NCBI GenBank assembly: GCA_041660505.1
Contig: JBAZWG010000001.1
Span: 541,776 to 605,775 of the forward strand
From: Minisyncoccota bacterium
GTDB lineage: Bacteria > Patescibacteriota > Minisyncoccia > Phycocordibacterales > JACRKE01
DNA: 64,000 nt
Reading direction: 5' to 3'
The translations under genes were made by a program, and so were the position numbers. The notes beneath the pieces are model-generated. The model was not told the DNA's origin and made no database searches. It saw nothing but the letters and a program-made list of their open reading frames with translations. Every line of letters starts with the position of its first letter. The stretch's first letter is position 1. Positions 3,541 through 63,700 of the stretch are shown here, piece by piece.

Positions 3541-4101
3541 TTATTTTGACTTAGAAGGTTCAACTTTAGGCACCTTAAAGGTTGAACCTTCTAAGTCGCC
3601 CAAAATTTGAAGCAGTGCCGTCATGATAGTCATGGGTGATGGCGGGTCGCCCGGGATTTCATAATCTACCGGTATGGCACCGCGCGCACCGTCGAGTACG
3701 GCGTAGGAGCCTTTGAATATTCCGCCATTAATAGCGTCATCGCCGACCGCGACAACAATCTTCGGAGTCGGTGTTGCTTCATAAGAATGCATAAGCCCGT
3801 CATACATATTGCGAGAGACCGGGCCTGTCACCATCAGCATATCGGCATGGCGCGGGGAGGCGACGAAGTGAATGCCGAAACGTTCAACGTCATAATAAGG
3901 ATTGCCCAGAGCCACGAGCTCCTGCTCCTCTGCGTTGGTCCCGCCGGCGGTCACGACGCGGATGGCCAAGGAGCCATTAAAGATTTTTTTGACCTTAGCG
4001 CTTAGTTCCGCGCCGGCAGTGTGATATTCAGGAGGTAAGCCCATATCAACCGATTCTATCAGTCTGGGGGTTTTTATGATTTTGGAAATTAAATTAAGCA
4101 T
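3541..4101 (-). CDS. NuoB-like hydrogenase small-subunit homologue lacking all Fe-S ligating cysteines (Ehr-type)
   Basis: 186 aa with NuoB/Oxidored_q6-like spacing (..RHADMLMVTGPVS.., ..AVGDDAINGG.., ..IPGDPPSP..). The protein contains zero Cys. The canonical CCxxE, GxCxxxGG and GCPP positions read GG, D and D. The last ~18 codons overlap a palindromic repeat (copy A1). Confidence 0.7.
   Translation of the reverse strand: MLNLISKIIKTPRLIESVDMGLPPEYHTAGAELSAKVKKIFNGSLAIRVVTAGGTNAEEQELVALGNPYYDVERFGIHFVASPRHADMLMVTGPVSRNMYDGLMHSYEATPTPKIVVAVGDDAINGGIFKGSYAVLDGARGAIPVDYEIPGDPPSPMTIMTALLQILGDLEGSTFKVPKVEPSKSK
3548..3597. repeat. REPIN-like palindromic doublet, family A copy A1 (inside 3' coding end of NuoB-like gene)
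   Basis: gacttagaaggttcaac / 16-nt loop / gttgaaccttctaagtc forms a perfect 17-bp inverted repeat built on the AAGGTTCAACCTT / AAGGTTGAACCTT motif. Confidence 0.75.
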
Positions 4102-4571: not shown

Positions 4572-5117
4572 ATGGCCAAACAAGAATTACAAGTTGGTCG
4601 CAATTGGTACGCTATCCATACCTACTCCGGGTATGAGAATGCCGTCGTGCGCAACTTGAAACAACGCATTGAGTCGCTCGGAATGGAGAATTTGATTTTC
4701 AACGTATTGGTTCCTAAAGAAAAGAAAGTAAAAGTTCGTGGCGGCAAGCGCGTGGAGTATGAAGACAAGATTTATCCCGGATACGTTTTAGTAGACATGA
4801 TCGTGACGGATGCGTCATGGTATGTAGTCCGCAATACGCCCCGCGTGACCGGCTTCGTCGGCTCGGGCGTCAATCCTATACCTTTGGACAAGAAAGAGGT
4901 TGATGAGCTCTTCCGCCGAATGGGCGAGACGTCTGTCAAACACTCCATCGAGCTCGATGTTGGTGAGACCGTGCGTATTAACGACGGACCGTTCAAAGAC
5001 TTCGAAGGCAAGGTGAGCGAGAAGGATGAGGCCAGGGGCAAGGTCAAGGTGCTCGTCTCGATGTTTGGTCGCGAGACACCCGTGGAGTTAGATTTTCTCC
5101 AAGTAGCGAAGATTTAA
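4572..5117 (+). CDS. nusG: Transcription termination/antitermination factor NusG
   Basis: 181 aa. N-terminal NGN domain (WYAIHTYSGYEN) and C-terminal KOW motif (GETVRINDGPFKDFEGKV). Confidence 0.9.
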   Translation: MAKQELQVGRNWYAIHTYSGYENAVVRNLKQRIESLGMENLIFNVLVPKEKKVKVRGGKRVEYEDKIYPGYVLVDMIVTDASWYVVRNTPRVTGFVGSGVNPIPLDKKEVDELFRRMGETSVKHSIELDVGETVRINDGPFKDFEGKVSEKDEARGKVKVLVSMFGRETPVELDFLQVAKI

Positions 5118-5213
5118 TTATTAACAGAATTTAAGAATTACAGAATTACAGAATAATAAAGCTTCTTTCTATAATTCCCAAATTCCTAAATTCTAAAATT
5201 CTGTTCAAATAAC

Positions 5214-5633: not shown

Positions 5634-5677
5634 GGTTTCAAAGGTTCAACCTTATGCATCCAAAAGGTTGAACCTTA
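5632..5677. repeat. REPIN-like palindromic doublet, family A copy A2
   Basis: aaggttcaacctt (5641..5653), 10-nt loop, aaggttgaacctt (5664..5676). The two halves are reverse complements of each other. Confidence 0.75.
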
Positions 5678-16288: not shown

Positions 16289-16314
16289 TCTAACAGAATT
16301 AAAGAATTTAGGAA

Positions 16315-17724
16315 TTGACGATTATGACTGATACAAATATGGATGATATTATTTCGTTCGCGAAGCGCAAAGGTTTTGTCTATCCCGGCTCGGAAATTTA
16401 CGGCGGAGCAGCCGGCTTGTATGACTTCGGGCCGTACGGCGTCGAACTTTTAAATAATCTAAAGGCGTCATGGTGGAAGGAGAATGTGCAAAAGAAAGAG
16501 AACTACTTCGGCCTCGACTCGGCGATGTTCAAAGACCCTCGTGTCTGGGAGGCGTCTGGCCACGTCGGCGGGTTTTCCGACCCTTTGACCGAATGCAAGA
16601 AGTGCAACACGCGTCTGCGCGTAGACAAAGAGCTTGCCAAAATCGGTGTGTCTGCCGATGAGAAAATGTCCGAGGCCGAATTGAACGCGCTTTTTGACGA
16701 ACATAAGAAAAAAATCAAGTGTCCCAAGTGTGGCGGACAAGACTTCTCGCCAGTGCGCGCCTTCAATCTGCTCGTGAAGTCGAACTTGGGGGATTTTACC
16801 AATACCGGCGAGCATCCGGTGTATCTTCCAGGCGAAGCCTGCCAGGGTATTTATTTGAATTACAAAAATATTCTAGATACAGTGCGCGCCAAAGTACCCT
16901 TTGGCATCGCGCAAATCGGCAAAGCATTCCGCAACGAGATATCGCCGCGCAACTTCCTCTTCCGCACGCGCGAGTTCGAGCAGGCCGACACGCAGTATTT
17001 CATCCGACCAAACGAGAATAAGGCAGATTATGAAAGAATCAAACAAGAACGCTGGAGTTGGTACTTGAGTTTAGGTATTCCGGCAGAACAGCTGCGCTGG
17101 AAGCAGCACGAACGCCTGGTCTTCTATGCCAAAGATGCTTGGGATATTGAATACAACTTCCCATCATACGGCTTCGACGAAGTCGAGGGTATTCATGACC
17201 GTACCGATTATGACTTGACCCAGCATATGAAGTTCTCCGGCGTTGACCTCTCGTATCTCGATCCAGAAACGAACGAGAAATATATTCCGTGGATACTGGA
17301 GACGTCGATGGGGATGGGCCGGCTCTTTCTCGCTGTCCTTTCAGAAGCTTATACAGAAGATGAACTTGGGGGCGAGAAGCGCACATTGCTTAAACTCAAG
17401 CCGAGTTTGGCGCCTATTAAAGTTGCAGTCTTTCCTTTGCTTCGCAACAAGCCGGAACTGGTCGCCAAAGCGCGCGAAGTCTTTATGATGCTTAAGCAAG
17501 AATTCCGCACCGAGTGGGACGACAACGGCAATATCGGCAAGCGTTATCGCCGGCAAGATGAGATCGGCACGCCGTGGTGCGTCACAGTAGACTTCGATAC
17601 GCTCGGCGAAACCCCCGAGAATAAAGACACCGTAACAGTTAGAGACCGCGACACGGGCAAACAAGAAAGAATGAAAATCAGCGAACTTGCGTCGCATATA
17701 CAAAAGAGTATACTTTCGACATGA
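16315..17724 (+). CDS. glyQS: Glycyl-tRNA synthetase (alpha2 dimeric class II type)
   Basis: 469 aa. N-terminus FAKRKGFVYPGSEIYGGAAGLYDFGPYG, class II motifs, C-terminal anticodon-binding domain. Confidence 0.9.
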   Translation: MTIMTDTNMDDIISFAKRKGFVYPGSEIYGGAAGLYDFGPYGVELLNNLKASWWKENVQKKENYFGLDSAMFKDPRVWEASGHVGGFSDPLTECKKCNTRLRVDKELAKIGVSADEKMSEAELNALFDEHKKKIKCPKCGGQDFSPVRAFNLLVKSNLGDFTNTGEHPVYLPGEACQGIYLNYKNILDTVRAKVPFGIAQIGKAFRNEISPRNFLFRTREFEQADTQYFIRPNENKADYERIKQERWSWYLSLGIPAEQLRWKQHERLVFYAKDAWDIEYNFPSYGFDEVEGIHDRTDYDLTQHMKFSGVDLSYLDPETNEKYIPWILETSMGMGRLFLAVLSEAYTEDELGGEKRTLLKLKPSLAPIKVAVFPLLRNKPELVAKAREVFMMLKQEFRTEWDDNGNIGKRYRRQDEIGTPWCVTVDFDTLGETPENKDTVTVRDRDTGKQERMKISELASHIQKSILST

Positions 17725-18004: not shown

Positions 18005-19717
18005 ATGGAAACTAAGTCCTGCCAGAATTGCAAAGAAAATTTCGTCATCGAACCGGAAGATTTCGTTTTTTACGAAAAAATCAAAGTCCCCCCGCCGACT
18101 TTCTGTCCGGAGTGCCGTATGATCAGGCGATTCCTCTGGAGGAACGAGAGAACACTATATAAGCGTAAGTGTGATTTGTGTAGTAAAGACATAATTGCTA
18201 TGTATTCGGCAGATTCCGATTTTACAGTGTATTGTTCCGACTGCTGGTACTCCGACCAATGGGACCCAATGGAATACGGCAGCGATTATGATTTTTCCGT
18301 GCCATTTTTTTCTCAATTCGGGCTGTTGGTAAAGAAAGTTCCTCGGATAGCACTTGAGGGATATCAAAATTTAAATTCTCCATTCACTAATTACACATGG
18401 TTTTCGAAAGATGTTTATTTGTCTGCTTCCACGTTGTATTCGGAGAATGTTTTTAACTCCCAGGCAACATCTAACGGAGCAGATATATTCGATTGTGATA
18501 ATACTTCGAGATCTAATACTTGTCTTGATGTTGTGACGGCCGATAAATGTTCTCGCTGTTATTCTTGCATACAAGTTCAAGAAAGTCTGGATTCTCGTTT
18601 CCTTTACGATTGCAAAAATTGTACGAGTTGTATGTTAAGTCACAACCTGAGACACAAATCATACGTCCTAAGAAATAAACAGCTTACGAAAGAAGAGTAT
18701 GAAAAAGAAAAGCCTGATATAGGGAGTTTTAAAATTCAGTGCGAATGCGAGGCAGAATTTGCCCACCTGCGAAGCGGAGCGGTAACCAGATTCGCCTCTG
18801 TGACAAAGTCAGAAAATACCACCGGCGACTACATTACTAATTCCAAGAATATTTATCGTTCATTCGGTGTTGATAACGCCGAGAATATACGCTATGGATC
18901 CCGTGCCACATATATTAAAGATAGTATGGATGTCCACGGCGTCGGAAGCAGCGATGGGGCAGTTGAGTTATTGTATGAATTCATTAACGGCGGATACAAA
19001 GATTCACGAATGTTTTTTTCAGCAAATTCGTATGAAGGAATGCTGAACGCGTACTACTGTGATTATTGCAGAGGGTCAGAAAACGTATTCGGTTGTGTCG
19101 GTTTAAAAAAGAAGCAATATTGCATTCTTAATAAACAGTATTTAAAAGAGGAATATTTAGAGTTGGTGTCGAAAATAATCGAACACATGAACAAGATGCC
19201 ATACGTAGATGCTAGCGGCATCGAATATAAATACGGAGAATTTTTTCCATCGGAAATTGCACCATTTACCTATAACGAAAGTTTAGCACAAGAATATTTT
19301 CCGATAAGGCAAGATGTTGCCGAGACGGCTGGATATCGCTGGCGCAAACAAGAAGAAAAAAGTTATAGGATTACCATTTTGTCCAGTGCTCTGCCAGACC
19401 ACATCAACGACACCCCTGATTCTATCTTAAAAGAGGTTATAGGATGTGAACATCGTGCAGAATGTTCTGAACAGTGTACTGGTGCGTATAAAATAACACC
19501 GGCAGAATTGAATTTTCATCGCGCCAACGGAGTTGCCCTGTCTCGTTTATGTATGAACTGTCGGCATTCCGCTCAATTTAAAAAGAGAACACCAATGCAG
19601 TTATGGCATAGACATTGTATGAAAAAGGGTTGCCCAAACGAATTCGAAACCTCCTACGCCCCAGATCGCCCCGAGATCATCTATTGCGAGTCTTGCTATC
19701 AGCAGGAAGTCGTGTAG
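18005..19717 (+). CDS. Cysteine-rich multi-zinc-ribbon protein, paralogue A
   Basis: 570 aa, about 40 Cys mostly as CxxC pairs. N-terminus CQNCKENFVIEPEDFVFYEKIKVPPPTFCPECR. C-terminal tail YAPDRPEIIYCESCYQQEVV is shared with the 20365..22062 product. Confidence 0.7.
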   Translation: METKSCQNCKENFVIEPEDFVFYEKIKVPPPTFCPECRMIRRFLWRNERTLYKRKCDLCSKDIIAMYSADSDFTVYCSDCWYSDQWDPMEYGSDYDFSVPFFSQFGLLVKKVPRIALEGYQNLNSPFTNYTWFSKDVYLSASTLYSENVFNSQATSNGADIFDCDNTSRSNTCLDVVTADKCSRCYSCIQVQESLDSRFLYDCKNCTSCMLSHNLRHKSYVLRNKQLTKEEYEKEKPDIGSFKIQCECEAEFAHLRSGAVTRFASVTKSENTTGDYITNSKNIYRSFGVDNAENIRYGSRATYIKDSMDVHGVGSSDGAVELLYEFINGGYKDSRMFFSANSYEGMLNAYYCDYCRGSENVFGCVGLKKKQYCILNKQYLKEEYLELVSKIIEHMNKMPYVDASGIEYKYGEFFPSEIAPFTYNESLAQEYFPIRQDVAETAGYRWRKQEEKSYRITILSSALPDHINDTPDSILKEVIGCEHRAECSEQCTGAYKITPAELNFHRANGVALSRLCMNCRHSAQFKKRTPMQLWHRHCMKKGCPNEFETSYAPDRPEIIYCESCYQQEVV

Positions 19718-19758
19718 TCTACGTTGTTGGTTGACGCCTTTCGTGATATGCTACGCAC

Positions 19759-20052: not shown

Positions 20053-20368
20053 GTTGTATCTCGGGCACATTCTTGATGCGATTACCAAGCTCGAGAAATA
20101 TGCGGGATTGACTTCGCGGACTGATTTGGAGACAAACGATCTTGTGTATGACGCCATAGTTCGCGAAATAGAAATTTTAGGTGAGGCAACGAAACACCTG
20201 ACGGACGACTTCCGTTGTCTGGAACAGGGAATTCCCTGGAATCTGATTATTGCAACCAGAAACAAGCTTATACACGAGTATTCCGAAGTTGATCTTGATT
20301 CTATCTGGAAAACTATCCAAGAAGATTTACCTAAGCTCAAAGCGGTGGTCAATAAGTATTTGAATTGA
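20018..20368 (+). CDS. hepT: HepT-type HEPN toxin (DUF86)
   Basis: 116 aa. HEPN Rx4-6H motif RNKLIHEY. Overlaps mntA as usual for this toxin-antitoxin pair. The alternative in-frame ATG at 20036 may be the true start. Confidence 0.8.
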   Translation: MTSRFSMDSENKLYLGHILDAITKLEKYAGLTSRTDLETNDLVYDAIVREIEILGEATKHLTDDFRCLEQGIPWNLIIATRNKLIHEYSEVDLDSIWKTIQEDLPKLKAVVNKYLN

Positions 20369-22062
20369 TGGAAACCAGAACTTGCCAAAACTGTAAGCAA
20401 AATTTCGTCATCGAACCGGAAGATTTTGAGTTTTACGAAAAAATAAAAGTCCCTCCGCCGACCTTCTGTCCGGAATGCAGAAATATCCAGCGTCTTGCGA
20501 CACGCAATATGAAGTCTTTGTATCGGCGCGCCTGCGACAAATGCGGAGAGAATGTTGTTTCTCGATTTTCTTCGTCCAACCGCGCAAGAATGTTTTGTCA
20601 TAAATGCTGGTGGGCAGAAGACTGGGACGGCATTTCATTCGGTAAGGATTACGACTTTTCGCGCCCATTTTTCGAACAGTTCAATGAATTACTTTTTAAC
20701 GTTCCTCATGTTTCTATTCTTAATTCAAACATGGTTGAGAGCGATTATTCCAACATGGAAACAGATTGCAAAAAATGCTATCTGACTTTCGGCGGCCACT
20801 ATAACGAAAATTGCGCCTTTACTGTCTACAGTTTGTATGGGAAGGAAGTTTACGATTCGTACTGGTCCCTTCACTGTGAACAATGTTTAGGCAACACGAG
20901 TGTTAATCATTGTTACCGTACGTTTTTTTCGGAACAATGCGGAAATTGTATCGACACCTTTGTCTCACGCGACTGCCGCGGGTGCACAAATATCATAGGC
21001 TGTGCAGGTTTGCGCAATAAGCAATATTGCATTTACAACAGACAATTCAGCAAAGACGACTATCTGAAAGAAAAGTCCAGGCTCAATTTCGGATCCCATG
21101 CAGAGCTCGAGAGTATCATCAGTAAGTCGCATGAAGTTTGGCTGAAGACGCCTCATCAATATGCAGCAATGATTAAGACAGTAAACTGCTCCGGCAACGA
21201 TATTTTTAACTCTAAAAATGTCATTAACGGATGGAACGTAGAAGAGAGCGAGAATTGCAAGAACGCATATATAGCAGCCTCGATAAAAGATTGCTATGAC
21301 GAAACCTCCGTAGGCAATGACGAGCTTGGCTACATGAATGCGAACGGCGGGGGATTATATAACTGTAAAGCAACGCTATACTCCTTTTCCAGCGACCCGA
21401 TGAATCGAAAAAGCGGATTTAATTGCGAATACTCCTATTCGCTTGTTAATTGCAATGACTGCTTCGGTTGTGCCGGTTTGCGCGGCAAGCGATACTGTAT
21501 TCTTAATAAACAGTACACAGAGGCCGAATACAAAAATTTATTGCCGAAAGTAATCGAACATATGAGGAAGGCACCTTTTGTATCTTCTGCCAACCGATAC
21601 ATTTATTCGTATGGCGATTTTTTCCCGGCAGAGCACTCGCTTTTTGCATATAACGAATCAGCCGCCCAAGATTTTTACCCGACACAAGGCGATAAGGCGC
21701 TAATGGCCGGATTTAATTGGCGAGAAGAACCGCCGACAGAATACAAGTTTACCGACTATATAATTCCGGATGATATTAGGGATGTTAAAGACGATATTTT
21801 AAATGCCGTGTTAAAGTGCGAGAAAAGTGGCAAGGCATATCGAATCATAAAGCAAGAACTCGAATTTTACAGAAGCATTGGACTGCCAATACCACGAATC
21901 GCCCCGCTCGAAAGAATAAATCAAAGAATTAATAATTTACTGCCGTTCAAACTTTGGGAGAGAACCTGCGGTAAATGCTCCAAACCCATTCAGACACCGT
22001 ACGCTCCCGACCGGCCGGAGATCGTCTATTGCGAGTCTTGCTACCAGCAGGAAGTAGTGTAA
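20365..22062 (+). CDS. Cysteine-rich multi-zinc-ribbon protein, paralogue B
   Basis: 565 aa, homologous over its full length to the 18005..19717 product. The first ~110 nt and last ~40 nt are ~85-90% identical at the DNA level. The interior is conserved only at the level of Cys spacing. Confidence 0.7.
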   Translation: MMETRTCQNCKQNFVIEPEDFEFYEKIKVPPPTFCPECRNIQRLATRNMKSLYRRACDKCGENVVSRFSSSNRARMFCHKCWWAEDWDGISFGKDYDFSRPFFEQFNELLFNVPHVSILNSNMVESDYSNMETDCKKCYLTFGGHYNENCAFTVYSLYGKEVYDSYWSLHCEQCLGNTSVNHCYRTFFSEQCGNCIDTFVSRDCRGCTNIIGCAGLRNKQYCIYNRQFSKDDYLKEKSRLNFGSHAELESIISKSHEVWLKTPHQYAAMIKTVNCSGNDIFNSKNVINGWNVEESENCKNAYIAASIKDCYDETSVGNDELGYMNANGGGLYNCKATLYSFSSDPMNRKSGFNCEYSYSLVNCNDCFGCAGLRGKRYCILNKQYTEAEYKNLLPKVIEHMRKAPFVSSANRYIYSYGDFFPAEHSLFAYNESAAQDFYPTQGDKALMAGFNWREEPPTEYKFTDYIIPDDIRDVKDDILNAVLKCEKSGKAYRIIKQELEFYRSIGLPIPRIAPLERINQRINNLLPFKLWERTCGKCSKPIQTPYAPDRPEIVYCESCYQQEVV

Positions 22063-22073
22063 TATAGGGGGTA

Positions 22074-23135: not shown

Positions 23136-24557
23136 ATGCAAAAAATATACATAACAACAACTCTACCGTATGTAAATGCATCGCCGCATATCGGCTTCGC
23201 GATGGAAATTATCCGTGCCGATATTCTTGCTCGTCATTATCGCAAGGCCGGATACGAAGTTTTTTTTAATTTCGGTACAGATGAACACGGAAAGAAAATA
23301 TACGAGAAGGCCGTAGAGGCAGGGAAAGATCCGAAAGCATATTGTGATGAATTCGCCGCGAAATTCGACGCCCTTAAATCGGTCCTGAATGTGACTTATA
23401 ATAATTTCATCCGGACGACCGATGAACACCACATAATGGCCGCCGGGGAATTTTGGAAGATTTGTCATGCCAAAGGCGATATCTACAAGAAAAAGTATCA
23501 AGTCAAATATTGCGTAGGGTGCGAGCTGGAGAAGCAAGATTCGGACTTGGTTAATGGGCAATGTCCGGAGCACCCGAACCGCAAACTGGAACTCTTGGAC
23601 GAAGAAAACTACTTCTTTAGATTTTCCAAATACGAAAAGCAGCTGCTCGATTTATACGAGAAGAATCCAGAACTCGTCTCTCCTCCATGGAGGATGAACG
23701 AGATAAAGGCATTCGTCGAGAGAGGATTGCAAGACTTCTCAATTTCACGATTAAAGGCAAAGATGCCATGGGGGATAGATGTACCGGGCGACAATGACCA
23801 TGTTATGTATGTCTGGTTCGACGCTCTGGTGAACTATATTTCAGCTATCGGCTGGCCTGATGATATGAATAGATTCGGTGCTTGGTGGCCGGCCGTTCAG
23901 GTCTGCGGGAAGGATAACTTGCGCCAGCAGACGGCGATGTGGCAGGCGATGCTTATGTCGGCCGGACTGCCTCACTCGAAGAAGATCTACGTTAACGGCT
24001 TTATAATCTCCGGCGGACAGAAGATGAGCAAGTCGCTTGGAAACGGTATCAACCCTATTGAAATAGTAGCCGAATATGGTACAGACGCCCTCCGCTTCTT
24101 TCTGGCCAGGGAAGTTACACCCTTCGAAGATTCCGATGTTACATCCGAGAGAATCAAAGAATCGTATAACGCATATCTTGCCAACGGTATTGGCAATCTG
24201 GCTTCCCGCATCCTAAAAATGAGTGAGAGCTATCTTGCCGGCGAAAAGATCGAGGTTATTATCTCAGATAATCCCGAGTTTGATAGTTTTATAGAAAACT
24301 ATCAGTTCGATTCTGCTATGAAATTTGTTATGGACGAAGTAACCAAACTTAACGAAAAGATTCAGACGACACAACCTTTCTCTCTCTATAAGACCGATCC
24401 GGAAAAGGCGAAAGTCATTATTCGGGAACTTATGAAAGGACTCGCCGGAGTGGCCAGGCTCCTTGAGTCGGTGATGCCAGCAACTGCCGAGAAAATTTCA
24501 GAGTGCATCAAAGCCAACAAAAAACCGGAGACACCGTTATTCCTAAGAAAAGAGTAA
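23136..24557 (+). CDS. metG: Methionyl-tRNA synthetase (short form, no C-terminal tRNA-binding domain)
   Basis: 473 aa. PYVNASPHIGFA sits at the HIGH position. Zn knuckle CVGCELEK...CPEHPN. KMSKS motif GQKMSKSLGN. Confidence 0.9.
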   Translation: MQKIYITTTLPYVNASPHIGFAMEIIRADILARHYRKAGYEVFFNFGTDEHGKKIYEKAVEAGKDPKAYCDEFAAKFDALKSVLNVTYNNFIRTTDEHHIMAAGEFWKICHAKGDIYKKKYQVKYCVGCELEKQDSDLVNGQCPEHPNRKLELLDEENYFFRFSKYEKQLLDLYEKNPELVSPPWRMNEIKAFVERGLQDFSISRLKAKMPWGIDVPGDNDHVMYVWFDALVNYISAIGWPDDMNRFGAWWPAVQVCGKDNLRQQTAMWQAMLMSAGLPHSKKIYVNGFIISGGQKMSKSLGNGINPIEIVAEYGTDALRFFLAREVTPFEDSDVTSERIKESYNAYLANGIGNLASRILKMSESYLAGEKIEVIISDNPEFDSFIENYQFDSAMKFVMDEVTKLNEKIQTTQPFSLYKTDPEKAKVIIRELMKGLAGVARLLESVMPATAEKISECIKANKKPETPLFLRKE

Positions 24558-25492
24558 TGTCGCTCAAGCTCGTAGATATTCATACCCACCCGCAATTCGC
24601 GGCTTATACGGAAGACCGTGACGCTATTATGCAACGTGCCGAAGAGGCAGCGGTGGGGCAGATCGTTGTGGGGACGCAAAAGGACACTTCACAGGCCGCC
24701 ATAGATCTTGCGCATAAATATCCGCATACTTGGGCAACGGTCGGTCTGCACCCGATACACACCACCAAGTCTTATCATGACGCATATGAACTAGAAAATT
24801 CCAACCTCACCCCTGCACCCCTCTCCGACGGAGAGGGGAAACTCTCGGAAAATTCCCCCTCCCTTTCGGGGAGGGGGTTAGGGGGTGAGGTGGTGAAGCC
24901 CTTCACTTCTCGCGGAGAGGTTTTCGATTATGACTATTACAGAAAATTGGCTACAGACGAGAAGGTGGTCGCTATTGGTGAATGCGGCTTGGATTATTTC
25001 AGACTCGATGAAGACACCAAACAGATACAGATGAATGTCTTCGATGCACAGATTGCGCTGGCGAACGAAGTGGAGAAGCCTATTATGCTTCATATTCGTG
25101 CGGGCAAGCATGCCGGCAGTGGCACGGCCTATCAAGACGCTTTCCATATGCTGCACTCAAAATCAAAAGTTTCGGCCAACGTGCATTTCTTTGCCGGCGA
25201 TATCGAAACTGCTAAAAGATTTTTGTCTATAGGCTGCACGCTATCATTCACCGGCGTCATTACTTTTACCCACGACTATGACGAAGTGGTAAAGTATGTG
25301 CCGATAGAGTCTATGATGGTCGAAACCGACGCGCCTTACATTACGCCAGCGCCATATCGGGGCAAACGCAACGAATCTTCTTATGCCAGGCTTATCGCTG
25401 CCAGGGTTGCCCTCATAAAAGGTATAAGCATAGAACAGGCAGAAGCCAAGCTCCTAGATAACGCCATACGACAGTTCAGGTTGAAATTTTAG
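24558..25492 (+). CDS. tatD: TatD-family metal-dependent hydrolase with an in-frame palindromic-element insertion
   Basis: Start chosen as ATG 24558 (MSLKLVDIHTHPQF), directly after the metG stop. TatD motifs present. The ~28-aa insert LTPAPLSDGEGKLSENSPSLSGRGLGGEVVKP is encoded by GC-rich repeat copy G1. Confidence 0.8.
24806..24890. repeat. GC-rich palindromic element, family G copy G1 (in-frame inside tatD)
   Basis: tcacccctgcacccctctccgacggagagggg ... ccccctccctttcggggagggggttagggggtgagg. Nested inverted repeats. Shares the cacccctg.cccctc.ccgaaggagaggg core with copies at 37731, 44076 and 63570. Confidence 0.7.
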
Positions 25493-26036: not shown

Positions 26037-26501
26037 ATGTACCTAAACAAAGTATTACTTATCGGTAATCTGACACGCGACCCGGAGAAGCGAGCTTTGC
26101 CGAATGGTACGAACGTTACGTCATTCAGCCTCGCGACTAATCGTATTTATAAAGACAAGAACGGTGCCAAGCAAGAATCGGTAGAATACCACAATGTCGT
26201 TACCTTCAGTAAACTCGCGGAATTGTGCGCACAATACTTAAAGAGAGGCCAGTCGGCATATGTGGAAGGCAGACTGCAGACGAGAAGTTGGGACGATAAA
26301 GCAACCAATCAGAAGAAGTACCGAACGGAGATAGTTGCAGACACGGTCCAGTTCGGGCAAAAGGCCGGTGGGAGTCCATCTACTCCGATGCCCGGAGGGG
26401 CCGGAGTTCCGACTTCGCCACAGGCGAACGTCGGAAAAGAAGCACTCGACACGATAGAGTACCCCGAAGAAGAAAGTAACGTCGAAGATATCCCATTTTA
26501 A
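26037..26501 (+). CDS. ssb: Single-stranded DNA-binding protein
   Basis: 154 aa. OB-fold N-terminus, Gly/Pro-rich linker, acidic tail EDIPF. Confidence 0.9.
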   Translation: MYLNKVLLIGNLTRDPEKRALPNGTNVTSFSLATNRIYKDKNGAKQESVEYHNVVTFSKLAELCAQYLKRGQSAYVEGRLQTRSWDDKATNQKKYRTEIVADTVQFGQKAGGSPSTPMPGGAGVPTSPQANVGKEALDTIEYPEEESNVEDIPF

Positions 26502-26531
26502 CAGAATTAAAGAATTATAGAATTAAAGAAT

Positions 26532-26744
26532 ATGATCTCATCCGCCAAACAATGTTATTTCTGCAATAATAACTTCAAGACGATAGACTACAAAGAGACC
26601 GAGCTCTTGAAGCGCTTCTTGTCACCGCACGCCCGCATTATGTCTCGCCGCAAGACCAGTACCTGCGCCAAGCATCAGCGCAAGTTAGACTCGGCTATCA
26701 AGCGCGCCAGACACTTGTCGCTCTTGCCATTCATCTCGCGTTAG
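26532..26744 (+). CDS. rpsR: 30S ribosomal protein S18
   Basis: 70 aa. Motif CYFCNNNFKTIDYKETELLKRFLSPHARI. Confidence 0.9.
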   Translation: MISSAKQCYFCNNNFKTIDYKETELLKRFLSPHARIMSRRKTSTCAKHQRKLDSAIKRARHLSLLPFISR

Positions 26745-28644: not shown

Positions 28645-28652
28645 ACGCCCAG

Positions 28653-28688
28653 AGGTTCGACCTTAAGCACCAAAAAGGTCGAACCTCA
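28653..28688. repeat. REPIN-like palindromic doublet, family A copy A3 (variant GGTTCGACC)
   Basis: gaggttcgacctt / 10 nt / aaggtcgaacctc. Located between the membrane-protein gene and the recA 3' end. Confidence 0.7.
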
Positions 28689-37730: not shown

Positions 37731-37822
37731 GGCCCCACCCCTGCCCCTCCCCGAAGGAGAGGGGGAAACCGAAATCTGAATTTTCTTCCCTCTCCTTCGG
37801 GGAGGGAATGAGGGAGGGGCTA
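37731..37822. repeat. GC-rich palindromic element, family G copy G2
   Basis: ggccccacccctgcccctccccgaaggagaggggg ... ccctctccttcggggagggaatgagggagggg. Confidence 0.7.
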
Positions 37823-44075: not shown

Positions 44076-44110
44076 GCCCCACCCCTGACCCCTCCCCCAA
44101 GGAGAGGGGA
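44076..44110. repeat. GC-rich palindromic element, family G half-copy G3
   Basis: gccccacccctgacccctcccccaaggagagggga, immediately after the rplL stop. Confidence 0.6.
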
Positions 44111-46713: not shown

Positions 46714-47555
46714 GTACTCCATCCAGATATGCAAAAAATCCTCAACAAAAAACGCAGCGGTTAAGGAGATTCGCATCTGTGCGTACTCTTAAATCGCCAC
46801 AAGCGATTTTTTTTGTCCCAGAGGGACAATCCGCCGGTGAGGCGGGTGAGAGATTCATCAGAACGACCCGTAACTTGAAAATTTAATTCCATCGCATCAC
46901 TGGTGTTAACCAATTTTATTGGGGTCTACCATGATGAAGATGGGCAGGAAAAAGAAAGAAAAAAACAATTAAGCAAAGACGGTTTTCATATTTCCTAATA
47001 GGAAATATAAGAGCATATGGTGGATGCCTAGACTTTGAAAGGCGATGAAGGACGTAGCATGGCTGCGATAAGCTTCGGGGAGGTGCCTAGCAACCTTTGA
47101 TCCGGAGATGTCCGAATGGGGAAACCTTCATGACGATGAGTCATGAGACTCGTACTAATTCTACGAGATCGCACACCCTGGGAAGTGAAACATCTCAGTA
47201 CCAGGAGGAAAATAAACAAAATGTATTCGAATGTGGGATGTGGTGCGGTATAGTCCGCAGTACATCCTACATTCGTTGTATTCCCTAAGTAGCGGCGAGC
47301 GAAAAGGGAGAAGCCCAAACCGAATTTTTTCGCAAGAAAAACTTCGGTGTTATAAGGCAGTGATATAGAATTTATTCTAGTAGAGTTACAAAACAGCATA
47401 ATAATCGAATCGACTGGAAAGTCGAGCCACAGAAGGTAATGGCCCTGTAGATGAAATTATGTTGTCTCTAATTACTGTTCTTGAGTACCCCGGGACATGA
47501 TAAGCTTGGGGGAAGTCAGCGGCACTAACCGCTAAGGCTAAATACTTTCAAAGAT

Positions 47556-47594
<39 letters not shown>

Positions 47595-48309
47595 GCCCGG
47601 TGAGGGCGTTGAAATAAACCTGAAACCATATGTTTACAAGGAGTCGGAGCGGATGGCGCAAGCCATGCCGCGACGGCGTGCCTATTGAAGAATGAGCCAA
47701 CGAGTTTATATGTACTGCTAGGCTAATCGCGTTAACCCGCGAGGAGTCATAGGGAAACCAAGTGTTAATAGCGCGTCACCCTGTTTACAGGGGTGTAGTA
47801 CATGTAAGACCCGAAGCCAGAGCGAGCTTACCATGAGCAGGGTGAACCATCGAGAAATCGATGGGGAGGCCCGAACCCGTATGTCGTACAATGCATTGGG
47901 ATGACTTGTGGTAAGAAGTGAAAAGCTAATCGAGCCTGGTAATAGCTGGTTCTCTCCGAAATAGCTTTTGGGTTAGCGTCACGTGTTCCATGTGGGGGTA
48001 GAGCACTGGAAGGTCTCGACAGGTCGAAAGATCGCGAGACCTATCAAACTCCGAATACCACATGCTAAAAGCGTGGCAGTTAGACTGCGGGGGCTAAGCT
48101 CCGTTGGTCAAAAGGGGAACAGCCCAGATCTCAATCTAAGGTCCCTAAATCTACGTTAAGTGCATCACAAGGAGGTGAAGTTTCGTTGACAATGAGGAGG
48201 TTGGCTTAGAAGCAGCCACCCTTGAAAGAAAGCGTAATAGCTCACTCATCGAGAGACTTCGCGCCGAAGATAATCGGGGCTCAAACGTAGTACCGAAGGT
48301 GAGGACTTG

Positions 48310-48388
48310 AGGACTTCATTTTTGCAAATTCAGAAGGTTCAACCTTTTGAATGCCTAAGGTTGAACCTTGGGGCAAAAATGAAGTCCT
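48310..48388. repeat. REPIN-like palindromic doublet, family A copy A4, at the tip of an extended 23S helix (H45 region)
   Basis: aggacttcatttttgc ... gaaggttcaacctt / ttgaatgcct / aaggttgaacctt ... gcaaaaatgaagtcct. The repeat doublet is enclosed by a further 16-bp inverted repeat. Confidence 0.65.
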
Positions 48389-49190
48389 TGAGTGGTAGGA
48401 GAGTTTTCGTGTCCGCAGTGAAGCCTAAGGGGTGACCCGTGGTGGAGCGACACGAAGTACGAATGTTGGCACAAGTAACCGCAATAGCGTTTAGAACACG
48501 CTACGCCGAAAGACTAAGGTTTCCTTCGCGATGTCAATCAGCGAAGGGTTAGTCGGTCCTAAGGGAATGACGAATGTCGGACCCGATGGAATACAGGTTA
48601 ATATTCCTGTACTTTTTTGTAGTCTGATGAAATGACGAAGTGTAGTATGCATGGCGCATTATGGATTTGTGTTTGCGCATCCGCCTTGATTCCCAGGAAA
48701 ATCCGGGAGTCTGTCTTTAATGACGACGGTGAAGGTGTGTGAAGATTCCGCGATTCGTCAAAGGAGATCATGCAAAGCGCGCTTCCAAGAAAAGTTTCTA
48801 AAGATAACTACAGAAAAACCGTACCGTAAACCGACACAGGTAGTCAGGTCGAGCAGACCAAGGCGAACGAGTGAGTGCATCCCAAGGAACTCGGCAAAAA
48901 AGCGGCCGTAACTTCGGAATAAGGCCTGCCCACGCAAGTGGGCTACAACAAAAGTTTCTCTGGCGACTGTTTATCAAAAACACAGCTCCCTGCGAACTCG
49001 TAAGAGGATGTATAGGGGGTGACGCCTGACCAATGCCAGAAGGTCAACCGGTGACCGTGTGCGCATCACACTGCGTGTGATGCAGTTTAAATATTTAAAT
49101 ATTTAAATTTGCATCGCGCTTGGCGCGATGCGTATGCTGTTCGTCGTAAGCCCTGGTGAATGTCGGCAATAACTATAATTGTCCTAAGGT

Positions 49191-49510
49191 TTTCGGATGG
49201 TCGCAAGACAATTCGAAAAGAATTGGGACAATTAGAGTACTGTGTAGATAAATTAGTCATAATAAGTCATTAATGCAAGTCAAAGACGATAGCGCTACCT
49301 TATCTAGCTATATGCTGTAGAGTCTGTACATTCATTTATACAGATGAGCAGCAGGGAAGTCGCCTCTACGGCGACCCCTCAGAGACTGAACGCTGGACAT
49401 GAAATTCTCCTCACGGAGAAGATTATGAAGATATAGTCCGTACTCGTAAGCGATTACGAGAGTTTTGTAGAAATACAAAACCCATGTCGCAAGGCATTGG
49501 TAACATATAG
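49191..49510 (+). mobile_element. Group I intron in 23S rRNA (E. coli ~1917-1931 region), no homing-endonuclease ORF
   Basis: Inserted between exon gtcctaaggT and agcgcaattccttgtcggg. The 5' exon ends in U and the intron ends in G. Contains the P7-region elements cagagactgaacgctgg (R-like) and aagatatagtcc (S element, identical to the Tetrahymena consensus). Confidence 0.6.
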
Positions 49511-50113
49511 AGCGCAATTCCTTGTCGGGTAAGTTCCGACGTGCACGAATGGCGTAACGACTGGAGAACTGTCTCGGGATGTTGCTCGGTGAAAATACAG
49601 TGCCGGTGAAGATGCCGGCTACCTGCAGATAGACGAAAAGACCCCAGGAGCTTTACTGTAGCTTGATATTGATTATACGTTTTGTCTGCGTAGCATAGAT
49701 GGGAGGATTTGAGAGTATGATTTCGGTTGTGCTTGATCCGTCAGTGAAATACCATTCTTATGAAGTGTATAATCTAACCTGCAAGGATAAACCTTGCGGA
49801 GACAGTATCTGGTAGGCAGTTTTAGTGGGGCGCTATCCTCCTAAAGAGTAACGGAGGAGTTTATTAAGGTTGGCTAGCCGCGAATGGAAACCGTGGCGAT
49901 AGTGTAATGGCACAAGCCAGCTTAACTGCAAGACGTACATGTCGAGCAGATGCGAAAGCAGAACATAGTGAACCGACCATGCGCATTAGAGGCGGTGGAA
50001 GATTATCGGACAAAAGCTACCCTGGGGATAACAGGCTGGTACTGCCCAAGCGTCCATAGCGACGGCAGTGTTCGGCACCTCGATGTCGGCTCATCTTATC
50101 CTGGGGCTGGAGA

Positions 50114-50146
<33 letters not shown>

Positions 50147-50173
50147 AAGATACGCGAGCTGGGTTCAGACCGT

Positions 50174-50503
50174 ATAGCACCTAAATTTAAATATTTAAAT
50201 TTTGAAATATTTAAACAGTGGGTTTTATACCGTCTGAACCCTCGAGAATATGATATACAACAAACCACATCATACTGTTTACTTGAATCACGGCGGTCGT
50301 AGATAGAGATATCTATGATAGAGCTGACTTATATCGGTGGAGTCCCATGCGGATCACACCTAGGGAATTTCTAATATTTAAATATTTAAACATTTAAATT
50401 TTGGACGACCCGTAGAGACTAAACGTCAGCCATCTTCATTCATAATTTATTGTGAGAAAGATGAAGCTATAGTCCATGCCCGTAGCAATACGGTGAATAC
50501 ATG
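50174..50503 (+). mobile_element. Group I intron in 23S rRNA (E. coli ~2593-2600 region), no homing-endonuclease ORF
   Basis: Inserted between exon gggttcagaccgT and cgtgagacagg. Ends in G. Contains agactaaacgtc (R element) and aagctatagtcc (S element). Confidence 0.6.
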
Positions 50504-50865
50504 CGTGAGACAGGTTGGTCTCCTATCTACTGCAGGCGTTGAACATTGAGAAGATTTACTCCTAGTACGAGAGGACCGGAGTGAACTGACCGCTGGTCTA
50601 CCTGTTGTCCTGCCAAGGGCACCGCAGGGTAGCTAAGTCGGGAAAGGATAATCTCTGAAAGCATCTAAGAGAGAAGCCAACTTCAAGATTAATGTTCGTT
50701 ATGAGACTCGTGAGAGATGATCACGTTGATAGGTGTTCGGTGTAAGCATCGCAAGATGTTGAGCCAAGACATACTAATAAGTCCATTCCTATTAGGAAAT
50801 ATGGAAGTCGTCGAAACTTAAATTATTTTTTCTTTTAAAACCTGCAAATATAAAGTTGAATGTTT

Positions 50866-56404: not shown

Positions 56405-57310
56405 ATGAGAATTCTAATTACCGGAGCGGCAGGATATATCGGAGGAATGTTGACGGATCAGTTCAAGGAAGGTCCTGATGTGCAGATTCTTGCACTGGAT
56501 ATAAAAGATCAACCAAAAGAAATAGATCATCCACGCATAACTTGGTGCATAGGTGACCTTAGGAAATCAGATTGGTTCAGTATTCTCGGGAGTGTGAAGC
56601 CGGATGTTATTGTGCATTGTGCGTGGGCGGCTTCGGGTAATGAAGAGATGGCGAATAATGTTTTTGACTACTGCGTTCGCCAAAAAATTCCGAAATTTAT
56701 CTACCTAAGTGCTATCGACGGCTACGGCAATATCTCCGATAGATATTTTATCGAGAACGATCCGTTGCGTGCCACAGACGATAGATATGGGTTGGATGTT
56801 GTGGCGTCTGAACATGCGGTAAAGAAGCTCTATGGTGGGTCGGGTAAGCACACGCAGACTTTTATACTCCGCTTGCCGATAATATTCGGACCTCGTGGAT
56901 GGCAACAAGAGCACTTTTTCGGCACACTCGGTTTATTCAAAAGCGGCGGCTTGCCTCTTGTGATGAGCGATCCGGACAGTATAATATTCCAAGCCGTGCA
57001 TGAAGACGATCTTGTTGATATAATCGGACTTCTTGCTTTTAATAAGTTGAACGACAGGTACGAAGTCTTTAATATCACGCCGGAAGATACGGTGCCGGCA
57101 AGCGGTATCGCCGCCACGTTTGGCAAGAAAGTGGTTGCGGTCTCGAAGGCAGTCAGGAAACTCGTCCCCTTCAATAATTCATCGCGGCTCACTAGTTCGA
57201 TACTTGCAGACGGCAGTAAATTCACAAAAAAGTTTAAATATAAATTTAATTACACATCATATGAGGCAATCACAACAGAGGAGGGGAAATATGGCACAGA
57301 ACAGAATTAA
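56405..57310 (+). CDS. NAD-dependent epimerase/dehydratase (SDR family)
   Basis: 301 aa. Rossmann motif ILITGAAGYIGG. Confidence 0.75.
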   Translation: MRILITGAAGYIGGMLTDQFKEGPDVQILALDIKDQPKEIDHPRITWCIGDLRKSDWFSILGSVKPDVIVHCAWAASGNEEMANNVFDYCVRQKIPKFIYLSAIDGYGNISDRYFIENDPLRATDDRYGLDVVASEHAVKKLYGGSGKHTQTFILRLPIIFGPRGWQQEHFFGTLGLFKSGGLPLVMSDPDSIIFQAVHEDDLVDIIGLLAFNKLNDRYEVFNITPEDTVPASGIAATFGKKVVAVSKAVRKLVPFNNSSRLTSSILADGSKFTKKFKYKFNYTSYEAITTEEGKYGTEQN

Positions 57311-57335
57311 TGAATTTTAGAATTAACGAATAATC

Positions 57336-58700: not shown

Positions 58701-58779
58701 CCCTCGCCTTGCGGTTCTCGTCTCGCCAGGTGGCAGACGGGACCGCTTTGTTTTTAGCCTAATTTTGTTACACTACCAA

Positions 58780-58815
58780 TGTTGAACCTTGGGCATATAG
58801 AAGGTTAAACCTTCT
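58780..58815. repeat. REPIN-like palindromic doublet, family A copy A6 (degenerate)
   Basis: gttgaacctt / gggcatatag / aaggttaaaccttc, just upstream of folD. Confidence 0.55.
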
Positions 58816-59722: not shown

Positions 59723-59726
59723 AAAA

Positions 59727-59745
59727 TTGGAAGTTTCACTTCCAA
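59727..59745. repeat. Palindrome TTGGAAGT-N5-ACTTCCAA copy P1 (upstream of transposase gene; loop inverted relative to P2/P3)
   Basis: ttggaagtttcacttccaa. Two more copies sit inside the downstream gene at 59945..59963 and 60236..60254. Confidence 0.7.
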
Positions 59746-59763
59746 AAAGTTATAATATGGAGC

Positions 59764-60450
59764 ATGCACATAAATTTAGAGTTTGCCGAGGAAGAGTACT
59801 ACCATGTTTACAATAGGGGCGTAGAAAAACGCAGTATTGTGGTCGATGAAAAAGATTCCGCCCGATTTATACAAAGTTTGATCCAGTTCAATTCGCTCAA
59901 GCCGATAGGGAGTATTTTCGAAAACACTTACGAATACAAGAAAATTGGAAGTGAAACATCCAAAGAACTAACAAAGAAGAATGAAGCCCTTGTAGAAATT
60001 ATCGCATATTGCTTAAATCCCAATCATTTTCACATGATACTTTCACCAGTTGTTGAAGATGGTATTAGTAAGTTCATGCATCGTCTGGGAACCGGTTATA
60101 CGAAATATTTTAATAAGAGGCACAAACGCTCCGGGTCGCTTTTTCAGGGATTGTTTAAAGCGAAACACCTGGAAGATAACGACTATTTACTCCATGTGAG
60201 CGCCTATGTAAACCTAAACGACCGCGTGCATAAAATTGGAAGTGAAACTTCCAAAGTTTCAAAATTGGTGCGGAAGAGTTACGGGGAGTATGAAGCGGGG
60301 AGTGGCGGATTCTGCCAGAAAGATGTTATACTTGATCAGTTTAAGAATAGAAAAGAGTATACGGATTTCTGTGAAGATTCACTCGAACTTATGCACGAGA
60401 CAAAAGACGAGCAAAATGAACTAAAAGATCTTAATTTATTAGAATACTAA
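59764..60450 (+). CDS. IS200/RAYT-like HUH tyrosine (Y1) transposase homologue carrying two in-frame palindrome insertions
   Basis: 228 aa from ATG 59764. The ORF-track N-terminal extension overlapping folD is rejected. COG1943-like blocks YYHVYNRGVEKRSIV.DE.D, the HUH motif NPNHFHMIL, GSLFQGLFKAKH, and DYLLHVSAYVNLN (candidate catalytic Tyr). A TATAAT lies at 59751..59756. Confidence 0.6.
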   Translation: MHINLEFAEEEYYHVYNRGVEKRSIVVDEKDSARFIQSLIQFNSLKPIGSIFENTYEYKKIGSETSKELTKKNEALVEIIAYCLNPNHFHMILSPVVEDGISKFMHRLGTGYTKYFNKRHKRSGSLFQGLFKAKHLEDNDYLLHVSAYVNLNDRVHKIGSETSKVSKLVRKSYGEYEAGSGGFCQKDVILDQFKNRKEYTDFCEDSLELMHETKDEQNELKDLNLLEY

Positions 60451-60454
60451 TTTC

Positions 60455-62539: not shown

Positions 62540-62569
62540 ATTCTTTAATTCTTTAATTCTGTCAAAATT

Positions 62570-63484: not shown

Positions 63485-63700
63485 CGACGGCGAGGTGAGT
63501 CCTCCGGCAACCTGCCCGACATGCCAGGTCGTGTGGCAGGCGGGAGGCGGAGGTCTCACCTCAGACGACCAGCCCCTCCCTTTGTCCCTCCCCGAAGGAG
63601 AGGGAATGACTTCAGGCGTCAAGGTCTCTCCTCGAGGAGGAGCAAGGCGACGGGAAGAGGTGAGTCCTTGACGACATTAGACCTGTTAATAACTTATTGG
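63485..63700. repeat. GC-rich composite repeat block after secF containing family G copy G4 (63570..63608)
   Basis: ggcgaggtgagtcctcc ... gaagaggtgagtccttg direct repeats, ctgcccgacatgccaggtcgtgtggcaggcggg inverted repeat, and cagcccctccctttgtccctccccgaaggagagggaatg. Confidence 0.6.

Follow-up and report, generated by a model that had tools for sequence, protein, structure and literature searches.

What is an 85-nt palindrome doing inside the reading frame of a conserved hydrolase gene? The question is raised by tatD in a 64,000-nt stretch of contig JBAZWG010000001.1 (the window, meaning the whole stretch analyzed), from a bacterium of the candidate phyla radiation (CPR). An original prediction, made from the letters alone, placed a GC-rich palindromic element, G1, in frame inside the tatD open reading frame (ORF) between conserved TatD blocks, and the sequence at 24806-24890 (85 nt) is as it described. 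We show that G1 is a copy of a dispersed palindrome with a triplex-rule anatomy. We think it probable that it is a non-coding, selfish-type repeat that the gene tolerates in frame, an ORF-less relative of cassettes that carry a DUF559 endonuclease. The host gene is the following:

24557..25492, + strand: tatD, TatD-family metal-dependent hydrolase of 311 aa (PF01026)

In a Pfam search the host protein matches PF01026 over residues 6-307 (E 2.3e-64) and keeps all the family-invariant residues (H9, H11, E142, H179, H210 and D258), so that both the domain and the metal-binding His, Glu and Asp residues of the family are present. TatD/YcfH entries of the PDB match it at E 7e-37, and it is identical in sequence to a protein named 'TatD family hydrolase [Candidatus Paceibacterota bacterium]'. 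The tatD ATG overlaps the stop codon of metG. G1 begins at a codon boundary and its stop-free translation is LTPAPLSDGEGKLSENSPSLSGRGLGGE; the remaining two frames of the same orientation contain stops (TAG in the TTA-loop region and TGA in GGTGAGG). Because G1 sits in the sole stop-free frame of its orientation, tatD stays open, with a net gain of 30 codons relative to a 281-aa orthologue and a 12-residue basal loop.

An intein or another self-splicing insert was considered and rejected. A Pfam scan of the protein returned TatD_DNase alone, with no Hint splicing domain, and an Rfam scan of the whole window at the gathering threshold gave no match at any G copy, and so no intron at the element.

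Comparison with homologues identifies the extra segment as an insertion. The loop between HPIHTxKSYHD and FTSRGExFD has 12 residues (DxxELGEGGKEF) in 80 of 120 homologues and 42 in the window protein. Synteny (metG-tatD-rpsF-ssb) is kept in the closest orthologues and the difference lies precisely at the tatD loop: in the 281-aa close orthologue (L002, P0006) this loop has 13 residues, and a codon-level comparison finds no insert. The original prediction had named a homologous segment in repeat-free orthologues as the observation that would speak against an insertion; none is present at this position, and the extra segment has the same boundaries as the palindrome. The PDB alignment of the window protein splits at query residues 71/126, equivalent to residues 79/87 of 1j6o, so that query segment 72-125 corresponds to about 8 residues of that structure. 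An AlphaFold model built from the 120-sequence alignment is confident overall (mean predicted local distance difference test score, pLDDT, 84; predicted template modeling score, pTM, 0.83) and its alternating strands and helices are consistent with a TIM (triosephosphate isomerase) barrel. The insert is its only long low-confidence stretch (pLDDT <50 at residues 75-115 only) and the loop is predicted to be disordered. These results show that G1 is an insertion, one that by the model adds a disordered surface loop of ~30 residues and appears to be tolerated by the TIM barrel.

G1 is one of several related elements. The hairpin core CCCCTCYCCGAMGGAGAGGG, with up to three mismatches, has eight matches in the window, all at the four loci that the original prediction grouped as family G, and none in 100 dinucleotide-preserving shuffles. 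A generic repeat finder independently grouped the same four loci (D5, I7, I13 and I15), and the family can therefore be retained. So can the GC richness of its members (62-74 %); the accompanying claim of an AT-rich genome cannot, since the window has 47.5 % GC.

To describe the anatomy of the family, we used a triplex-rule finder that requires a hairpin with complementary arms and, antiparallel to its purine arm, a third strand (G.G, A.A or T.A triplets), with at most one mismatch in each. It found exactly six modules in the window and none in 30 shuffles. Each module consists of a 9-bp hairpin (pyrimidine arm and purine arm), a 2-5-nt linker and a third segment that mirrors the purine arm. 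G1 and G2 have two modules each, inverted with the third strands outside, and G3 and G4 have one each. G1 is coding and the other three loci are intergenic. The modules are listed below:

24805..24838, - strand: G1 left module, CCCCTCTCC-GTC-GGAGAGGGG-TGCA-GGGGTGAGG (hairpin plus G-rich third strand, read on the - strand; 0 hairpin and 0 third-strand mismatches in the triplex-rule finder)
24839..24854, no strand: G1 spacer between the modules, AAACTCTCGGAAAATT (from the sequence; compared with the cassette arms at loci L013, L121, L052 and L209 discussed below)
24855..24890, + strand: G1 right module, CCCCCTCCC-TTTC(G)-GGGAGGGGG-TTA-GGGGGTGAG(G) (triplex-rule finder, 0 hairpin mismatches and 1 third-strand mismatch)
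37733..37764, - strand: G2 left module, intergenic, after a 1250-aa ORF and its hairpin (triplex-rule finder)
37787..37819, + strand: G2 right module, whose third strand AGGGAGGGG is the exact mirror of its purine arm GGGGAGGGA (triplex-rule finder)
44077..44109, - strand: G3 single module, between the rplL stop and a terminator-like hairpin (triplex-rule finder)
63573..63605, - strand: G4 single module, 86 nt downstream of secF with another palindrome on each side (triplex-rule finder)

A mirror (triplex-type) constraint predicts that the third strand covaries with the purine arm, and it does so in three states: GGAGAGGGG/GGGGTGAGG, GGGGAGGGG/GGGGTGGGG and GGGGAGGGA/AGGGAGGGG. The 85-nt palindrome of G1 is made of the outer arms CCTCACCCC / GGGGTGAGG plus the inner hairpins. 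For the 97-nt G1 region, the fold predicted for single-stranded RNA has -64.4 kcal/mol (z -6.4) and the predicted DNA fold -30.3 kcal/mol (z -4.8), with the two inner hairpins closed by an outer stem; these energies reflect Watson-Crick folding only, and the triplet rules are satisfied on paper.

The original prediction also placed the other copies beside strong terminators. G2, which is preceded by an A-tract/hairpin/T-tract downstream of the 1250-aa ORF, and G3 do abut terminator-like hairpins; G4 lies in a nest of palindromes with no clean terminator. The names given to rplL and secF are correct, as are the identifications of metG and rpsF. The 1250-aa 'giant' ORF has a peptidoglycan-binding domain as its sole domain match.

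To which class of repeats does this anatomy belong? E. coli was already known in the 1990s to have BoxC elements, also called potential intrastrand triplex (PIT) elements, for whose origin, means of spread and function there is, to our knowledge, no explanation yet. They are the same elements as TM_ECO, with the pattern CCCTCNCCC N3-6 GGGNGAGGG N3 GGGNGAGGG (Holder et al. 2015, PMC4666352, which cites earlier BoxC/PIT work by Bachellier and by Hoyne/Maher). According to the same study, circular dichroism (CD) and nuclear magnetic resonance (NMR) show that a single TM_ECO strand folds in vitro into a stable intramolecular triplex of the purine motif, and triplex formation in vivo by the E. coli elements is unsupported. 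It counted 23 TM_ECO in MG1655, including five inverted pairs, and 3610 in 262 proteobacterial genomes, and described them as "always located intergenically" and as linked to local genomic variability. It found no mobile-element association, no promoter or terminator activity and no association with a gene class, and treats E. coli BoxC as distinct from repetitive extragenic palindromic (REP) sequences (PMC4666352). For the ITxF database, the study defines a general class II G/C-rich intrastrand-triplex motif in which a pyrimidine stem and its complementary purine stem are separated by a loop of 1-6 nt; a second loop of 1-6 nt leads to a third stem, which runs antiparallel to the purine one and forms G.G, A.A or T.A triplets. 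Stems have at least 8 nt and at most one mismatch (PMC4666352). All six window modules fall within this definition, with at most one hairpin and at most one third-strand mismatch over 9 nt. The TTA second loop of the G1 right module is the same as that of E. coli type A TM_ECO.

The class extends far beyond these two hosts. We scanned one genome per GTDB species for exact matches to the hairpin core alone, and the matches listed number at least 130 in at least 120 stretches. A rule-obeying third strand stands on the 5' side, a flank outside the search pattern, in 108 of 130 listed matches. Most of the listed matches are from Bacteroidota; Ignavibacteria, Desulfobacteraceae, Clostridia, Chloroflexia, Saccharibacteria, Pseudomonas and others are also represented. 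Because the core recurs across phyla with this third strand, family G is not a lineage-specific oddity; it is a member of the known intrastrand-triplex class, which is found in many phyla.

Nor is G1 alone in its coding location, as 32 of the 130 listed matches lie inside long ORFs. Single or double modules that lack an ORF of their own are found in frame in genes confirmed by Pfam as RmlD, a SpoIIE-type phosphatase, a NuoL-type protein, AcrB, MnmA, a GT9 glycosyltransferase, EPSP synthase, PheRS-alpha, AspRS, ValRS, adenylate cyclase and a Saccharibacteria SufBD (loci L138, L147, L173, L151, L188, L160/L203, L185, L096, L113, L063, L041, L115, L083 and L103). A few of these assignments are weaker: the BadF/G-type ORFs with modules match below Pfam's cut-off (L160) or by eye (L203), and the AspRS assignment (L041) was made solely by eye. 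In contrast to the elements of E. coli, described as 'always intergenic', repeats of this class are commonly found inserted in coding sequence. Repeats of one architecture are thus present in CPR and in many other phyla, repeatedly in frame inside essential genes.

In other phyla the same arms also bracket a gene. On Bacteroidota-type contigs, leucyl-tRNA synthetase (LeuRS) contains an in-frame DUF559 domain of full length (PF04480, E 1e-32 to 1e-37) at no fewer than five loci (L013, L052, L055, L105 and L123), and MetH does so at two or more (L121 and L053). The arms that bracket DUF559 are canonical TM arms in L013, L052, L055 and L121 and variants, similar in general type, in L105, L123 and L053. 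One example of the bracketing reads GA/CCTCACCCC-TAA-CCCCTCTCC...hairpin at the start and hairpin-TTG-GGGGTGAGG/TC at the end. The insertion point in LeuRS varies by locus, with two or more sites in use. DUF559 matches occur in 8 of the 120 listed GTDB loci, within ~100 bp of the core in 6 of the 8, and metagenome loci supply two further cases in which DUF559 and the core are adjacent. In these full cassettes the DUF559 ORF occupies the position of the G1 spacer; the spacers of G1 and G2 are 16-22 nt long.

Free-standing DUF559 genes, which came from a protein search with the core only, have triplex-type arms on both sides in all three cases inspected. The arms of one (L209) are perfect, with third strands outside as in G1; another, from Phormidium (L208), has third strands inside, as in an E. 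coli pair. In E. coli K-12, a BoxC-like hairpin forms the end of the DUF559 gene ycjD (L127, NC_000913 1350600-1352200) and holds its stop codon in the loop; downstream it is followed by what remains of a second DUF559 3' end and, ~170 bp away, by TM_ECO no. 9. This hairpin and its neighbor raise the possibility that BoxC of E. coli, too, is tied to DUF559. Among the PD-(D/E)XK nucleases, a homing endonuclease of a group I intron belongs to the Vsr/DUF559 clade (PMC3424549). In the literature we found no report that links DUF559 to BoxC/PIT repeats or to in-frame inserts; our coverage was incomplete and an earlier description is possible.

Several free-standing DUF559 proteins of 128-138 aa (P0134, P0162, P0211 and P0224) are named 'methionine synthase / leucyl-tRNA synthetase / ATP-dependent D...' by their sources. 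The 'MetH/LeuRS' names on DUF559 proteins of ~130 aa probably reflect annotation transfer from hosts that carry an in-frame cassette.

The tatD loop itself has a history of turnover. Among the related loci, L002 has no insert, as noted above, and L005 has merely 5 residues beyond the basal loop. L001 (P0002) has a double element of family G, read in a different frame and partly degenerate, and this copy is decaying in its hairpin B and third strand. L003 (P0003) and L004 (P0004) each have a palindrome unrelated to family G, that of L003 being of the GAGGTGAGTCCTCC type and that of L004 different again. Although P0002 and P0003 share 89 % identity outside the loop, the palindromes that they carry differ. 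The GAGGTGAGTCCTCC family forms the tatD-loop insert of L003 (~1000-1060) and also occurs in the window after secF, where three palindromes crowd into the region 63491-63676 and GAGGTGAGTCCTCC at 63492, 63549 (- strand) and 63657 flanks G4. Many more distant Paceibacteria TatDs have 'PSFAKASEGKEG'-type inserts at the loop (P0014, P0032, P0042, P0044, P0048, P0051, P0052, P0063, P0067, P0092, P0102, P0107, P0115 and P0120), in some of them apparently with nested additions (PPSHKASEGHS); the DNA of such an insert (L205 10001-10918) is a pyrimidine/purine quasi-palindrome. For the "PSFA...KEGKEG" tatD-loop insert of another Paceibacteria lineage, no further copies are present in its own 21-kb locus. 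Taken together, these observations show that palindromes of several unrelated kinds have repeatedly landed in the tatD loop.

The DNA of the basal loop in an uninterrupted orthologue (L212, 1001-1837) is purine-rich, GAC GAG AAA GAA TTG GGC GAG GGC GGA AAA GAG, and contains GGGCGAGGG, which fits the arm pattern GGGNGAGGG. It is conceivable, and we say so speculatively, that this resemblance to the G-rich arm may be the reason for the landing site. More generally, the choice of target by a cassette might be guided by resemblance of the target to the G-rich arm.

We therefore favor as probable the explanation that G1 is a dispersed palindromic repeat of the selfish type, non-coding in nature and tolerated in frame, and related to the DUF559 cassettes without having their ORF. 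Two inverted modules with third strands outward would make up the 85-nt palindrome, which would have entered a purine-rich stretch of tatD that encodes a surface loop. The element would then be read through as a Gly/Ser/Pro-rich disordered peptide of ~30 residues, itself functionless and tolerated by the TIM barrel. Because arms identical to those of G1 flank DUF559 in other phyla, G1 looks like an ORF-less cassette; G1 and G2 may represent the form that resembles a miniature inverted-repeat transposable element (MITE), with the spacer in place of the ORF. Spread and recurrence at the same site could be due to the DUF559 endonuclease (by homing-like activity or structure-specific nicking), to the unusual DNA structure of the arms, or to both.

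Several observations weigh against this explanation. Searches for DUF559 by tblastn with three domains, in the window and in the related loci L001-L005 (~50 kb), returned noise only, and cognate ORF-bearing forms with the same arms are present in other phyla and absent from the window and these loci. A chimeric TatD plus DUF559 query against 5.8 billion proteins retrieved ordinary TatDs only, none with an endonuclease. At the edges of G1, G2 and the DUF559 cassettes we saw no target-site duplication; the flanks just continue the inverted repeat for 1-2 nt. The strict TM_ECO consensus, run as a regular expression over the window with up to 3 substitutions, has no match. The sequences of the six window modules are not identical to each other, so there is no evidence of recent activity in this genome. 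Finally, the strong conservation of the element described below need not come from selfish maintenance or a recent transfer; the DNA or RNA structure could instead serve the host.

A broader form of the same idea is more tentative, and we would not yet give it an even chance. BoxC/PIT-type palindromes would be the termini and ORF-less relics of cross-phylum mobile DUF559 (YcjD/Vsr-like) cassettes that enter conserved genes in frame and without splicing, a class unrecognized so far, and G1 would be one such relic. It offers a concrete, testable hypothesis for the movement of BoxC/PIT-type repeats.

The explanation that best survives beside the favored one is suggested by the conservation of the element. 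A pattern scan of metagenome contigs found a tatD orthologue from another metagenome sample (L129) with the insert in the same frame and with identical boundaries. Identity between the window and L129 is distributed as follows:

Element: 79/85 (93 %), third codon positions 86 %
Upstream flanking coding sequence: 157/222 (71 %), third codon positions 38 %
Downstream flanking coding sequence: 64/85 (75 %), third codon positions 43 %

Third-position identity differs between element and flanks at Fisher p = 2e-5, and 5 of the 6 changes within the element fall in loops or the spacer. G3 behaves alike: in L194 its orthologue, at the equivalent position after rplL, is 100 % identical over 38 nt in comparison with ~77 % for the rplL coding sequence. 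These alignments show that conservation of the DNA is much stronger in G1 than in its host gene. With the element so much better conserved than its flanks, either the nucleic-acid structure is under selection, or near-identical copies have been repeatedly delivered to the same sites by homing or gene conversion.

The first of these possibilities amounts to a structure kept for a host function, such as pausing of transcription or translation, 3'-end protection, or a recombination or replication signal. The reading frame would then be a mere constraint and not the point. Such a function is compatible with a mobile origin, and we consider it unlikely as the explanation of G1, although it is the strongest of the competing ones. 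In its favor are the element identity between lineages that are near synonymous saturation, with changes mostly confined to loops and spacer, the perfect conservation of G3 at its orthologous site, the very stable predicted folds of both RNA and DNA, and the terminator-like hairpins that G2 and G3 abut. It is harder to reconcile with the other close tatD orthologues, which lack the element or have unrelated palindromes, and with the decaying copy in L001. The E. coli counterparts have neither promoter or terminator activity nor a gene-class association (PMC4666352), and no Rfam family matched at the gathering threshold.

A different vehicle for the repeats could be sought in the window itself, which encodes a transposase of the type known as REP-associated tyrosine transposase (RAYT):

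59764-60447 (region 59723-60478): IS200-like Y1 (RAYT-type) transposase, 228 aa, flanked by small hairpins (PF01797)

Family G would then be a REP-like repeat mobilized in trans by this enzyme (E 6.4e-9 for the Y1_Tnp domain), and dispersed hairpins near gene 3' ends are indeed typical of REP/RAYT systems. The genome also tolerates in-frame hairpin insertions, as the Y1 gene itself has two: copies of the 24-nt hairpin AAAATTGGAAGTGAAACWTCCAAAG at 59941-59965 and 60232-60256, each reading KIGSETSK. It makes a second family of palindromes with in-frame insertions in the genome. Family G, however, is distinct from the hairpins found within and around the Y1 gene (TTGGAAGTGAAACTTCCAA). RAYT genes are flanked by their own repeats, and no G module is adjacent to the Y1 gene, whose flanks are hairpins of the TTGGAAGT... 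type. In other phyla, G-type arms are physically linked to DUF559, and no transposase was noted among the listed genes beside the arms, where Y1 was not searched for explicitly. BoxC is, moreover, distinct from REP in E. coli (PMC4666352). We accordingly regard mobilization by Y1 as improbable, clearly more so than a host function.

Could the insert instead be an adaptive TatD surface loop, selected at the amino-acid level? An in-frame insert is found in at least three lineages (the window, L129 and L001), and the window and L129 peptides have only 2 residue differences in the 28-residue element (4 over the D75-F116 loop). Third codon positions are, however, as conserved (86 %) as the rest of the element, which points to a nucleic-acid constraint and not to the protein. 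L001 reads family G in another frame and so as an unrelated peptide, the loop is predicted to be disordered, the same DNA is found at non-coding loci, and 80 of the 120 homologues do without the insert. Selection at the protein level fails to explain the conservation pattern, and we hold this possibility to be very unlikely. An assembly artefact or a chance low-complexity match can be dismissed as next to impossible, as the insert is present in independent assemblies from different samples (NCBI/JGI/Logan P0001, JGI contig L129 and ENA contig L001) and shuffled sequence gave 0 matches.

Other repeats were observed in the window. The 23S rRNA gene (46994-50798) has two group I introns, at 49184-49460 and 50275-50495, and AT-rich AAATTTAAATATTTAAA repeats (direct-repeat family D1) lie in or near these introns at 49083, 50183 and 50366. 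A hairpin family of the form AAGGTTCAACCTT-N10-AAGGTTGAACCTT has five copies, at 3555-3590, 5641-5676, 28652-28687, 48334-48369 and 58778-58813, one of which falls within the 23S rRNA gene coordinates. AT-rich AACAGAATTAAAGAATT units occur intergenically in both orientations (5113-5205, 16290-16324, 26490-26532, 57298-57334 and 62533-62568), perhaps as promoter or regulatory motifs. Repeat pairs of 67-125 nt, 74-85 % identical and ~2.35 kb apart (D4, D7 and D9), connect 18005-19721 with 20368-22066; this suggests two diverged tandem copies of a ~1.7-kb segment, which are probably paralogous genes.

How does family G compare with known systems? Like REP sequences and bacterial interspersed mosaic elements (BIME), it consists of dispersed hairpins, extragenic in most cases and often near gene 3' ends, in a window that has a Y1 transposase. 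It differs in that the Y1 gene goes with a different hairpin family and in that G modules have a third strand, which REPs lack.

The long forms resemble homing elements such as inteins and group I introns, including the system of the Vsr-like homing endonuclease (PDB 3r3p, PMC3424549), in carrying a putative nuclease ORF at conserved sites of essential genes (LeuRS and MetH). As with homing elements, a site is shared by diverged lineages and the element is much more conserved than its flanks. In contrast to them, the DUF559 inserts appear from their sequences to stay in the protein without RNA or protein splicing, having neither a Hint domain nor an intron fold, and G1 has no ORF. With MITEs, family G shares terminal inverted repeats, the lack of an ORF and a multi-copy state, and here too ORF-bearing long forms with the same arms exist, in other genomes. 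It departs from them in having no target-site duplications, and the ORF of its long forms encodes a putative Vsr-like DUF559 nuclease of 110 aa and not a DDE or other known transposase.

The closest architecture is that of BoxC/PIT/TM_ECO, which is equal to that of the G modules. Both kinds of element are multi-copy and dispersed, often in inverted pairs, with no obvious transposase for either. They differ in stem register and in sequence, CCCCTCTCC in the window versus CCCTCNCCC in E. coli, and the third strands stand outside in the window pairs and inside in the hrpB-mrcB pair of E. coli. The elements of the E. coli type are described as intergenic only and come from proteobacteria, whereas G1 is coding and its host is a CPR bacterium.

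In its behavior, G1 resembles the Rickettsia palindromic elements (RPEs), small palindromic repeats that are found in frame in unrelated housekeeping genes and are translated as surface peptides compatible with the fold (PMC10969869). RPEs are ~100-150 bp long, specific to Rickettsia and encode conserved peptides (PMC10969869). G1 too is an in-frame palindromic insert in a surface loop; by their description, RPEs differ from it in host phylum and length, and in having neither a triplex-type third strand nor a known link to an endonuclease. What is new here is the BoxC/PIT architecture in a CPR genome and in a coding location, together with behavior like that of a Rickettsia palindromic element, and it points to a way of remodeling protein surface loops in bacteria outside Rickettsia.

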